A program made the position numbers and the translations under genes. Under the pieces are notes generated by a model. It saw only the letters and a program-made list of their open reading frames with translations, was not told the DNA's origin and made no database searches. Shown piece after piece: positions 17,747 to 22,528 of a DNA stretch of 64,000 bases. Origin of the DNA: an uncultured delta proteobacterium (GTDB taxonomy: Bacteria; Desulfobacterota; RBG-13-43-22); NCBI GenBank assembly GCA_963711835.1, contig CAVQFQ010000006.1, positions 32,001-96,000 on the forward strand, read 5' to 3'. Position 1 is the first letter of the stretch. Each line of letters opens with the position of its first letter.

Positions 17747-17943
17747 ATAAAGGTCCTCCTCTAAAGATAATGATTAAAAAAGATCGGACTTGTTTCAGTT
17801 GGTGAAGATCCCTGAAGCCCTTCGGTTTGAGATTCACGTAACTTTGGGACTATCTCAAATTTTTAGAGCGCCTTTTTGGGGAACCATTGTATAATAATTT
17901 CCATCATGGAGATACAAAAAAAAAGGTCTCTTCCTCTTCGGCC

Positions 17944-19575
17944 ATGAAACTGGTTCTCATCCAGCCGCCTATCCGGGACTTTTACGAGTCCTCCAGCCGC
18001 CTTCAGCCTATCGGGTTGGGCTATTTAAAGGCCGCCGTAAAGAAGCATCTCTCAGGGGTCGAGGTCCGCATTTTTGATTTCCATCAGGGTTGGGGACGAA
18101 GGACCACCCCGCTGCCCAATGAACTAAGCTATCTCCGGGACTATTACCCTTGGCCGGATCAGAGCCCTTTCGCTCTTTTTCATCAGTATTATCATTTTGG
18201 AGCTTCTTTCGAAAGAGTGGCCCGGGAAGTGGCCCGGGAAGAGCCCGACCTGGTGGGGATTTCTTCCCTCTTTTCTCCCTATTACCGTGAGGCCCTTCAG
18301 TGTGCCGACCTGATTAAGAAAGAGGTCGGATGCCCTATTGTGCTGGGGGGGTCTCATGTTTCTGCTGTGCCGGAACTTATGTTGAAGCAGCCCAGTGTGG
18401 ATTGGGTGATTCTGGGAGAAGGCGAAAGACCTCTGGTGGAGCTCCTTAAGGCCTGGAAAGAAGGCCGGACCCTGGAGGAAGTCCCCAACCTGGGATTTAA
18501 GAAAGAGGGCCGCCTGATTTTCAACCCGGTCGGGGAACCCTATGCCATCGATGAAATCCCTTTTCCCGATTTGTCCGATCTCGACGGCAGGAAGTATCTG
18601 TTTGAGAAGAAGCCGTTATGTTTTGTAATGACCTCCAGGGGATGCCCCCACCAGTGTAGTTTTTGTTCGATACACCGGACCTTCCCCGGCTATCGCCGAC
18701 GTTCGACGGATTCTGTTCTGGAGGAAATAATTCACCGGGTTGAGGAAGGATTTCGAATTTTTGACTTCGAAGATGATAACCTCACCTTCGACCAAAATGA
18801 GATGAAAATCCTGTGCCGTAAACTGGATCACATGTTTCCAAAAGGAACGATTCGGTTTTTGGCCATGAACGGCATCTCCTACCAAAGTCTGGATTTGGAA
18901 CTCCTGACGCTGATGAGGAAAGCAGGGTTTACCCACCTTAATATCGCCCTGGTGAGCGCCGATTCCTCCATAAGAAGAGGCTGCAACAGGTCCGGTGATT
19001 TGGGAAAATACCTTCGCGTTGTTCAGGAGGCGACCTCATTGGGATTTAAAATGGTCTCTTATCAAATCCTGGGGCTTCCGGGAGAAAGCCTGAAGGCCAT
19101 GATCAAGACCCTGGTATGGCAGACCCGGCTGCCGGTCTTGTTGGGGGCTTCGCCCTTTTATCTCTCTCCTGAGACCCCGATTGCCAAACAATTTCCGGAA
19201 ATGACCGATGAGGATTTACTTAAATCCCGGCTCACGGCCATGGCCGTTGAAACGGATCAGTTCGAGCGGGAGGATATTTACACCCTTTTTGTGACCATTC
19301 GAATCATCAATTTCCTGAAGGGGCTCTCTGTCCCAAAGGCTCGGATCACGCTTGAAGAAGCCCTGAGGAATGCTTATAAGAAAGGGAAACGGGCTGCCCA
19401 AGGAGCGGAACTCCTTAACCTTCTTCTATCCCAAGGCGTCCTGTATGCGGCGACTTCACAAGGGTTTAAACGGTTATCAAGATTTAAAGCGAAACTGTTT
19501 CAGGAGGTCTGGGGAAAGCTGGGGGTTATCCGGACCTTGGAGGGAAAGATCATACTAATACAAGGGCAAAACTAA
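17944..19575 (+). CDS. Cobalamin-binding radical SAM protein
   Basis: B12-binding domain (QPIGL, DLVGISS, GGSH, GEGE) then TSRGCPHQCSFC and FEDDNL; start at ATG 17944. Confidence 0.9.
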   Translation: MKLVLIQPPIRDFYESSSRLQPIGLGYLKAAVKKHLSGVEVRIFDFHQGWGRRTTPLPNELSYLRDYYPWPDQSPFALFHQYYHFGASFERVAREVAREEPDLVGISSLFSPYYREALQCADLIKKEVGCPIVLGGSHVSAVPELMLKQPSVDWVILGEGERPLVELLKAWKEGRTLEEVPNLGFKKEGRLIFNPVGEPYAIDEIPFPDLSDLDGRKYLFEKKPLCFVMTSRGCPHQCSFCSIHRTFPGYRRRSTDSVLEEIIHRVEEGFRIFDFEDDNLTFDQNEMKILCRKLDHMFPKGTIRFLAMNGISYQSLDLELLTLMRKAGFTHLNIALVSADSSIRRGCNRSGDLGKYLRVVQEATSLGFKMVSYQILGLPGESLKAMIKTLVWQTRLPVLLGASPFYLSPETPIAKQFPEMTDEDLLKSRLTAMAVETDQFEREDIYTLFVTIRIINFLKGLSVPKARITLEEALRNAYKKGKRAAQGAELLNLLLSQGVLYAATSQGFKRLSRFKAKLFQEVWGKLGVIRTLEGKIILIQGQN

Positions 19576-20369: not shown

Positions 20370-20476
20370 ACCCAGCGTAGTCAAAGAATACTGTTTTCAC
20401 CCTATTTATTTCGTTGAACTTTTCAGGTATTATGGTTGCGGATAATGTGACCGTAGAAGGGAGGTGAAAAAACAGG

Positions 20477-20599
20477 ATGAAAAGAAAAATGTCCCCTGAG
20501 TTGTTGGCTAAGGAGGCGGCCTACTGGGAAAAGATGAAAAAGGCAATGAAAGAAATTCCTGGTAAGGTATGCCACAAGTGAAAGGGCTGAAAATCCTAA
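20477..20599 (+). CDS. Putative 40-aa selenopeptide MKRKMSPELLAKEAAYWEKMKKAMKEIPGKVCHK-U-KG-U-KS
   Basis: GGAGGTG RBS 10 nt before ATG; TGA at 20579-81 and 20588-90 in CxxUxxU spacing; TAA at 20597-99; SECIS-like hairpin follows. Not in the ORF track. Confidence 0.7.
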
Positions 20600-20601
20600 A
20601 C

Positions 20602-20618
20602 GTTGCTGGGACAGCAAC
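20602..20618 (+). promoter_or_regulatory. Candidate bacterial SECIS hairpin
   Basis: GTTGCTG-GGA-CAGCAAC, starting 11 nt after the second UGA, G-led apical loop. Confidence 0.65.
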
Positions 20619-20627
20619 CAAACCATT

Positions 20628-20688
20628 TGGCGGATAGGCGCCGGCCGATTGATGAAAAAAGGGAACCGCGCGCTTGTCCGCCATTTTT
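20628..20688 (+). terminator. Terminator-like stem-loop after the peptide gene
   Basis: TGGCGGATAGGCGC...GCGCTTGTCCGCCA followed by TTTTT; loop is long. Confidence 0.55.
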
Positions 20689-20781
20689 ATCACAGGTCCT
20701 ATTTTAATTGATCCTTTGTATTGTTCAACTTTCCTATTATTAATAAGAGCAAGAACCAGTTTACATTTTAGAAGCTGTTTA

Positions 20782-20958
20782 TCACCGCCCACTCGTCACG
20801 CCCCGGCGTGACTCGCTCAAGGCGCAGAGATCGCTAAGAGCACAATTTTTCATTTGCCTGTGAGAGGCAGGCAAATGAAAAGAGCTCATTTTGCTTTCCG
20901 CCTTCGCAGCGGAAAGCAAAAAATGTTCTTCTTCGCGTCTTTTGCGTCTTTGCGGTGA
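20782..20958. repeat. REP-like multi-hairpin intergenic element
   Basis: Ends TCACCGC/GCGGTGA; internal hairpins GTCACGCC..GGCGTGAC, TTTCATTTGCCTG..CAGGCAAATGAAA, TTTTGCTTTCCGC..GCGGAAAGCAAAA. Confidence 0.65.
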
Positions 20959-21019
20959 ATGTAAACATTGATTCGCTCTGATTAGTATTAACCTTAATCA
21001 AAGGCCTTTTCATTTCTCT

Positions 21020-22060
21020 ATGCTGACTCAAAGCACTTTCGATTTTTTTATCCAATGGCACCTGACCGAACGCTGCAACCTCCGCTGCCGGCATTGTTAC
21101 CAGGAGGGTTACGGCGGAGAGGAACTGCCCCTGATCGAAATCGTTCGAACTATTCAGGACCTGGCTGAAATGATTGACGACTGGTCCGATACCTACGAAA
21201 TTGCTTTCCAGCGCAGTTTCAATGTCACCGGCGGCGAACCCCTTTTAAGGGCGGATTTGTTCGAGATCCTGGAGATTATGGGAGACCACGGGTTTGATCT
21301 CTATCTCCTGACCAACGGAATTTTAATCGACTCTTTGAAGGCCGAGCGGTTGGCGGCCCTCCGGATCAAGGGGGTTCAGGTCAGCCTGGAGGGCCCTGAG
21401 GAAATCCATGATAAAATACGGGGGATGGGCAGCTTCCGGTCTTCCATGAAAGGTCTGGGACACCTTGTGGCTGCCGAAGTACCCGTTACCCTAAACCTGA
21501 CCCTCTCCCGGCTTAATGGGGAATTTGTGAGCCAAATGATAGAGGTGGCAAAATCAGCCGGGGCTGGACGGCTTGGATTTTCCAGACTGGTTCCTTCCGG
21601 CAAGGGGTTGGGGCTGTTACCCGAGATGTTAGGTGGGAAAGAAGTAGAAGCGATCTATGCTCAGGTCCTGTCGCAAAAACCGGAAGGGCTTGAGATCGTA
21701 ACCGGAGATCCGCTGGCTTCCCAGATGTCTTTTAGCCCTTTTCAGGAGGATTTGGGAGATATTCCCCTGGGCGGGTGCGCGGCGGGCGTCTCCGGACTCA
21801 CCATTCTTGCCGACGGTACGGTAACGCCCTGTCGCAGGCTGCCTCTCCCGATTGGAAATGTCCGGAAAGATTCATTAAGGGAATTATGGATTGCTTCTCC
21901 GATTCTTGGAAAGCTCCGGGATAAATCCGGTTACCAGGGGAAATGCGGTCGCTGCCCAAGGTGGGCCGGTTGCCGGGGCTGCCGGGCCATTGCCTATGCC
22001 TATTCCCAGGCCCAGGGCCGGCCCGATTTTCTGGCCGAAGACCCGCAGTGCTTTTTATGA
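21020..22060 (+). CDS. Radical SAM/SPASM domain protein (putative peptide maturase)
   Basis: QWHLTERCNLRCRHCYQ, TGGEP, SPASM cysteines GCAAG...PC...CGRCPRWAGCRGCRA...DPQC. Confidence 0.92.
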   Translation: MLTQSTFDFFIQWHLTERCNLRCRHCYQEGYGGEELPLIEIVRTIQDLAEMIDDWSDTYEIAFQRSFNVTGGEPLLRADLFEILEIMGDHGFDLYLLTNGILIDSLKAERLAALRIKGVQVSLEGPEEIHDKIRGMGSFRSSMKGLGHLVAAEVPVTLNLTLSRLNGEFVSQMIEVAKSAGAGRLGFSRLVPSGKGLGLLPEMLGGKEVEAIYAQVLSQKPEGLEIVTGDPLASQMSFSPFQEDLGDIPLGGCAAGVSGLTILADGTVTPCRRLPLPIGNVRKDSLRELWIASPILGKLRDKSGYQGKCGRCPRWAGCRGCRAIAYAYSQAQGRPDFLAEDPQCFL

Positions 22061-22172: not shown

Positions 22173-22528
22173 TTACCAGAGCCGGATAACTTTCTTTCCT
22201 TCCCTCATCTCTCCCCTGATTTTTTCCATATGCCTCAGGGCAGCCATTTCCCTTTCCAGGTCGGAAGGTTTGATTTGAAGCCTTTCGACGATCAGGGGAA
22301 ATTCAACCCCGCCCGTTTCTTCCAGATATTTCAAAATCTTTTCCTGGATCGGATTGAGGTTGACCCCGACGGTTTGTTGTTGAAAGGACTTGGCACTATG
22401 AACCGCCCAGGGATCGCACCCCTTGGCCGGCGACAGGGTGTCCATATAACAATCTTCGCACAAGGTCCGTCCGGCATGTCCCTTTCTTCACCCGGTGTAA
22501 TTTTATCGCCGCATCTTTGGCAAGTCAT
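22173..22528 (-). pseudogene. Small CxxC/CxxC + HTH-like protein, frameshifted near 22479
   Basis: MTCQRCGDKITPGEER in one frame continues as HAGRTLCEDCYMDTLSPAKGCDPWAV in another; one base missing. Confidence 0.7.

Follow-up and report, generated by a model that had tools for sequence, protein, structure and literature searches.

This locus raises the question whether a reading frame that gene callers close at its first TGA continues through two TGA codons into a peptide with two selenocysteines (U), and what such a peptide would serve for. The window, i.e. the whole stretch of 64,000 nucleotides analysed here, comes from an uncultured delta proteobacterium. A preliminary description had proposed a strong ribosome-binding site, a cysteine followed by two TGAs at i+3 spacing, a TAA, a 7-bp hairpin starting 11 nt after the second TGA and a stem behind it. 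All of these elements were found where they had been placed, in the order ribosome-binding site, open reading frame, two TGAs, TAA, hairpin and long stem. The features of the locus are given below, the site counts referring to the family census.

20460..20466, plus strand: Shine-Dalgarno site GGAGGTG; most homologues have a comparable GGAGGTG-type site in front of the start
20477..20599, plus strand: gene of the 40-residue peptide; charged leader with E13 and W17, core C32-x-x-U35-x-x-U38-K-S
20579..20581, plus strand: first in-frame TGA (U35); TGA in 111 of 113 sites, TGC in 2
20588..20590, plus strand: second in-frame TGA (U38); TGA in 111 of 113 sites, TGC in 1, TAA in 1
20602..20618, plus strand: SECIS-type hairpin GTTGCTG-GGA-CAGCAAC; 7 bp, GGA loop, behind the stop codon
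20628..20688, plus strand: long G+C stem and T run, terminator- or mRNA-stabiliser-like; in many, not all, homologues
21020..22060, plus strand: radical SAM/SPASM enzyme of 346 residues without RRE domain; seven invariant SPASM cysteines; likely maturase

The frame opens with the ATG at 20477 and runs over 34 residues to the first TGA, followed by Lys-Gly, the second TGA, Lys-Ser and the TAA at 20597-20599. Read in this way, the peptide ends in C-H-K-U-K-G-U-K-S, with the codon of C32 at 20570-20572. The long stem proper covers 20628-20683 and is followed by five T; it has no entry in the consensus terminator scan, is kept in family-level relatives and is missing where the enzyme gene abuts the peptide gene. 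As judged from comparative sequence data, the locus is likely to belong to an uncatalogued family of double-selenocysteine micro-peptides with a dedicated radical SAM enzyme in anaerobic bacteria.

Among 61 relatives searched with U read as C, 19 gave a match to the peptide, and 17 of these matches are real. A sample of 401 genomes of the host phylum contained 22 with the peptide after five weak false matches had been dropped, and a Nitrospirota sample 35 of 201 (about a sixth), in which all 30 loci fetched read C-x-x-U-x-x-U. For the census, sites were picked by a profile on the standard translation without a hairpin filter, resulting in 113 distinct sites of Desulfobacterota type and from Nitrospirota. 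TGA stands at both positions in 109 of them; the TGAs of homologues thus align with TGA or, in three single swaps, with TGC (two TGC/TGA, one TGA/TGC). The one remaining site, TGA/TAA, is locus L070, whose genome has a second copy of the peptide (L116). The lysine after each U is conserved: K39, behind the second codon, is found in 113 of 113 sites with both Lys codons in use, and K36 in 111 of 114. Synonymous variation is seen past both UGA codons, Ser codons of either family are used two places past the second one, and each of the three stop codons occurs as the true end of the gene. The residue preceding the second U is mostly G (51 of 114 sites), S (37) or K (21). An in-frame UGA aligned with UGA or Cys, with conserved sequence beyond it, is the pattern by which selenoproteins are recognized, and the family displays it. 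The expectation that gene callers truncate the peptide was borne out, since 87 of 91 profile matches among 1.84 billion database representatives end at the first TGA. Named members are filed as a "hypothetical protein" of 34 residues, so that the family is invisible in databases. A member with cysteine at all three core positions was not found among the family matches and database searches, which suggests that selenium is needed for function. The co-occurrence with selA was uninformative, the gene being detected in 69 of 79 carriers and in 363 of 401 genomes of the phylum sample, i.e. without enrichment.

The bacterial SECIS model summarized in PMC13188914 has a stem of 4-16 bp, a loop of 3-9 nt with G in its first two places, a distance of 16-37 nt from the UGA and an energy of -7.5 or lower. 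The hairpin behind the peptide agrees with it in stem, loop G and distance, its loop starting 27 and 18 nt after the first and second UGA, and is marginal in energy (-7.4 kcal/mol for the bare hairpin); -7.5 or lower is reached in 66 of 81 family sites. In the window sequence, the small hairpin alone folds no better than shuffles (z -0.1 to -0.9); a fold better than shuffles (z -4.3 and -4.6) was obtained for the region that includes the second stem. Every one of the 113 sites has a G-loop hairpin of at least 5 bp at a distance of 15-25 nt behind the second codon, and a strict hairpin test was passed by 88 of the 113 versus 8 of 891 ordinary TGA-ending reading frames of the host genome. A chance hairpin is excluded by this conservation and contrast. 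Across 75 aligned sites, among them 13 short-loop rows off by one column, 93% of cells pair, and two-sided, compensatory changes occur in six of the seven pairs; this covariation exceeds all slid controls and all 500 shuffles, the shuffle test being inflated by relatedness.

The spacing had been described as the same as that of selD, which holds only approximately, as the loop lies at 20 nt in selD, 23 nt in arsS and 18 nt here. That one SECIS could serve both UGAs fits the locus, where a second hairpin is not needed, and the same had been proposed for UxxU hydrogenases (PMC13582414). Sec-type selD and arsS, on which the description had relied, are both present in the window, and the host genome has selA, one selB and one complete tRNA-Sec. 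RNA-run evidence for the locus was too weak to count. Judged by sequence conservation, both UGAs are very likely read as selenocysteine.

Judged by gene neighbourhood, the decisive neighbour of the peptide is the radical SAM/SPASM gene, which the preliminary description had left unnamed. It starts 420 nt downstream of the peptide gene, and the same enzyme is located downstream of the peptide at 106 of the 110 sites with enough sequence, at a spacing from overlap up to 650 nt; an intact adjacent enzyme is missing for four of the 110 peptides. When the enzyme was taken as the starting point, 56 loci with at least 42% identity were obtained, recorded under Nitrospirota, Syntrophales, Geobacteraceae, Syntrophorhabdales and unclassified deltaproteobacteria. 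The complete motif precedes the enzyme gene in 54 of them, the remaining two being one TAA allele and one locus with the peptide elsewhere. The short leader-core peptide and the enzyme hence co-occur strictly. Applied to the phylum sample, the profile of the enzyme yielded a top tier of 28 places with a clear gap to the rest. The six top-tier places new to our set have the peptide, or part of it at contig ends, and the 14 examined of 62 next-tier places are without it. No recurrent third gene was found across lineages, and no RRE, protease, transporter or immunity gene travels with the pair. A search for RRE/PqqD in the enzyme, its recurring neighbours and a scanned set of 76 proteins was negative. 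An RRE is not needed by every RiPP maturase.

The enzyme has the CxxxCxxC motif and the SPASM cysteines, in agreement with Pfam matches. C19, C23, C26, C253, C271, C309, C312, C318, C321 and C344 are invariant in 43 sequences; T261 is invariant in the clade and replaced by Cys in 8 of 14 next-tier enzymes. Neither peptide nor enzyme passes an NCBIfam cut-off. The best scores of the enzyme, all far under the cut-offs, are 170 bits with AhbD and 147 with NirJ2, both haem-synthesis families, as well as 147 with ACGX, 142 with GeoRSP, 137 with SbtM and 136 with MftC; among thioether-forming families, it scores 88 with StsB, 63 with SkfB and 57 with PapB. In a quick, midpoint-rooted tree holding no thioether-forming enzyme, it forms its own clade, nearer to SbtM and uncharacterized relatives than to AhbD-like enzymes. 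An assignment to haem synthesis as AhbD or NirJ was rejected, with 170 and 147 bits versus a cut-off of 500 (TIGR04545/TIGR04055), and the true AhbD of the host is encoded on another contig and scores 545 bits.

The structure model of the enzyme (pLDDT 89) is closest in fold to the peptide maturases SuiB, SkfB, ChlB, anSME and CteB, and among solved structures the best match by sequence is SkfB (E 5e-18). A complex of enzyme and peptide, modelled with the 34-residue product that ends before the first UGA and thus excludes the Sec core, scored 0.89 versus 0.02 for the best of three controls; the mark applied to such scores is reached by 116 of 157 solved pairs and 2 of 215 mismatched pairs. The runs agree in at least 84% of contacts, with a partner pLDDT of at least 75. 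W17 contacts W55 and residues 58-61, and E13 contacts R287 and W290. Peptide residues 16-34 and, on the enzyme, C253 and C321 are also listed among the contacts. Residues 58-61 form an insertion largely missing in other groups, and R287 is fixed in this clade only. The leader is thus predicted to bind the enzyme, although the score may owe something to solved leader-maturase complexes.

Our preferred reading is a two-gene unit in which the 40-residue peptide with two selenocysteines is probably bound and modified by the enzyme, likeliest by an SbtM-like azole oxidation. That the peptide is the substrate of the enzyme appears quite probable, and the peptide would be a modified RiPP. According to established SECIS rules, SelB on the one hairpin behind the stop codon would deliver selenocysteine at both UGAs. 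The helical leader with E13 and W17 would dock on the clade-specific patch of W55, residues 58-61, R287 and W290 without the help of an RRE, and the chain is predicted to run from there towards the first auxiliary cluster. This cluster would have three Cys ligands (C253, C271 and C321) and an open site, to which the selenolate of the substrate may bind during hydrogen abstraction by the 5'-deoxyadenosyl radical. A selenolate at the open auxiliary-cluster site was shown for PapB and Tte1186 (PMC10177961). Cys and Sec would then be oxidized to thio/selenooxazoles as by SbtM, whose chemistry is the formation of such rings (PMC9204691). By analogy, thio/selenooxazoles are tentatively put forward as the product, while Se/S-C cross-links are rather unlikely and some other chemistry is doubtful. 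Azoles are favoured, by a small margin, over Se-C rings to the fixed lysines at i+4, because SbtM is the nearest characterized peptide enzyme by profile and tree. Against azoles, the G-U-G context of SbtM is missing, and SbtM has eight SPASM cysteines instead of seven. Since AhbD-like enzymes also have seven-Cys SPASMs and SbtM has eight, an open first auxiliary site is no proof of peptide chemistry. The product may, as a guess, stay in the cytoplasm as a three-chalcogen ligand of soft metals or for redox purposes, because neither a signal peptide nor a conserved transporter, protease or immunity gene is present.

The known system most similar to this unit is SbtA/SbtM of Desulfobacterota, described in 2022 as the first case of a radical SAM enzyme producing a selenocysteine-containing RiPP (PMC9204691). 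Both systems have a short Sec peptide (with up to two Sec) and a downstream SECIS beside a radical SAM/SPASM gene, and both enzymes are on the same side of the tree with respect to AhbD-like enzymes. In contrast to the hydrophobic leader and mid-chain S-G-U-G-G of SbtA, annotated as a "selenobacteriocin" precursor (TIGR04081), the new peptide has a charged leader and a C-terminal C-x-x-U-x-x-U-K. None of 60 members matches TIGR04081 at E<=1, and K, not G, follows each U; the earlier statement that the peptide is not SbtA stands, real SbtA peptides looking different. The maturase SbtM (TIGR04082) has about 200 extra N-terminal residues, and the new enzyme, in its separate clade, reaches 137 bits versus the cut-off of 350 over profile positions 199-515 only. 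Furthermore, the new family, unlike SbtA/SbtM, also spans Nitrospirota. The best reading of these sequence comparisons is a second kind of selenocysteine RiPP that would work like SbtA/SbtM without being a member.

MftC/GeoRSP-type short SPASM enzymes resemble the new enzyme in length (about 330-350 residues), in the lack of a fused RRE and in a full-length match, which remains under their cut-offs (265 and 400); moreover, no PqqD/RRE gene was found among the 76 proteins and the recurring neighbours. MftC turns a peptide into an intracellular cofactor. The UxxU selenoproteins, i.e. group 4 [NiFeSe] hydrogenases, the FmdB family and NF041115, share two Sec three residues apart and a proposed common SECIS (PMC13582414, PMC13188914), but carry the motif within larger proteins and not in a micro-peptide. 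The 119 families tabulated in a 2026 review (PMC13188914) include no C-x-x-U-x-x-U micro-peptide beside a radical SAM enzyme, and no description of the peptide family was found in the literature searched. The family offers a two-gene, synthetically accessible system for seeking natural C-Se chemistry, and the locus a minimal test of one SECIS behind a stop codon serving two UGAs.

The first alternative keeps the pair and lets the enzyme make seleno/thioether rings as in ranthipeptides or sactipeptides, simplest between C32 and K36 and between U35 and K39 as overlapping X-x3-Lys rings. Ranthipeptide and sactipeptide systems (PapA/PapB, CteA/CteB, Tte1186, SkfA/SkfB) share with ours a SPASM enzyme of close fold, whose open first auxiliary cluster is putative in our case, and a leader followed by a Cys-rich core. 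In nature, these systems act on Cys peptides, and an RRE is present in most of their enzymes. Ring formation would make use of the two conserved lysines, each four residues after a Cys or Sec, and of the putatively open cluster; SkfB as the best solved match points the same way, as do the acceptance of synthetic Sec by these systems and the selenoethers made by PapB from Sec peptides (PMC10177961). However, the scores with these families (57-88 bits) are far under the cut-offs and lower than those with SbtM, MftC and NirJ2, the core lacks a conserved Asp/Glu acceptor, and just 2-4 residues follow U38. We regard such rings as an unlikely outcome, though the first one to consider after azoles.

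Secondly, the peptide might stay unmodified and act as a small partner of the enzyme, its core ligating an Fe-S cluster or soft metal or serving as a sacrificial selenium donor while the enzyme acts on another substrate. The C-x-x-U-x-x-U spacing is that of three-cysteine cluster ligands, and a few members weakly resemble, below threshold, zinc-ribbon/4Fe-4S Pfam models with U read as C. Small-molecule enzymes are among the nearest named families, and the absence of an accompanying protease or transporter would be in line with such a role as well. It is distinctly unlikely nevertheless, given the leader-plus-core layout, the stem of its own behind the peptide gene in many loci and the absence of a second conserved gene to supply another substrate. 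A related enzyme is also found beside a short Cys-rich peptide: in L136, a short peptide with Gly/Cys repeats at its end precedes a radical SAM/SPASM gene of the next tier, the two representing a different candidate RiPP system.

Thirdly, the peptide gene could mainly be a selenium-sensing leader, UGA read-through controlling translation or termination of the enzyme and the peptide being a by-product. In 25 of 26 Syntrophales-type loci, no ATG, GTG or TTG lies between the peptide stop and the conserved N-terminus of the enzyme; the stop is overlapped by ATA (21) or ATG (1), and by ATG likewise in six further loci. In the overlap loci (L070-L096, L116 and L118-L122), the SECIS hairpin encodes the first residues of the enzyme. 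Elsewhere, a terminator-like stem lies between the two genes. This overlap hints at selenium-coupled translation, of which the family would be a possible case and which can go together with a substrate role of the peptide. As the main function, sensing is very improbable: the conservation of E13, W17, C32 and the lysines goes far beyond the needs of a sensor, binding of the leader to the enzyme is predicted, and the spacing to the enzyme gene varies widely.

The weakest alternative, that the UGAs are plain stops or are read as Cys by the SECIS-dependent tRNA-ReC present in some Desulfobacterota with UxxU proteins (PMC13582414), could draw on the one TAA allele and on 10 of 79 carrier genomes (incomplete MAGs) without detected selA, but is most improbable, as a tRNA-ReC system found no support in the host genome (89% complete), which has a single complete tRNA with a UCA anticodon and one copy each of selB and cysS, a second Rfam tRNA match being a 3' duplicate of tRNA-Sec, and as plain stops leave the TGC swaps, the synonymous codon use past the UGAs and the covarying hairpin unexplained. 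The duplicate (L207, G000:C1:7250-7342) lies about 640 nt from the gene and is a mark of integration at selC.

Returning to the modified two-selenocysteine peptide, its boldest version would be a natural, effectively obligate di-Sec RiPP class, whose RRE-less enzyme performs chemistry so far unseen in nature (selenoether-to-Lys rings or a three-chalcogen metal cage of tandem selenooxazoles), and whose Syntrophales-type enzyme would be translated only after both UGAs are read as Sec, because the SECIS doubles as its first codons. We consider this combination possible but somewhat unlikely.

Several minor observations concern the surroundings of the pair. One genome (G020) has three paralogous peptides (L003, L021/L114 and L022) in C-U, U-U and U-C forms, and an intact enzyme gene is kept only by the U-C copy. 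Uncharacterized short SPASM enzymes with 31-37% identity (L124-L135) occur without the peptide, most of them with an eighth SPASM Cys. Upstream in the window (17887-19575), a B12-binding radical SAM gene remains under all NCBIfam cut-offs; such a gene immediately precedes that of the peptide in one genus of the family, and it could be a lineage-specific tailoring methylase. A YceI-family gene adjoins the cassette in several unrelated lineages (L051, L055, L058, L063, L078, L089 and L003). The intergenic stretch 20735-21000 carries palindromic repeats, which match about 25 other places in the genome, and on the minus strand at 22173-22528, a small zinc-finger/winged-helix-like gene is split over two frames, with an intact homologue in L123.
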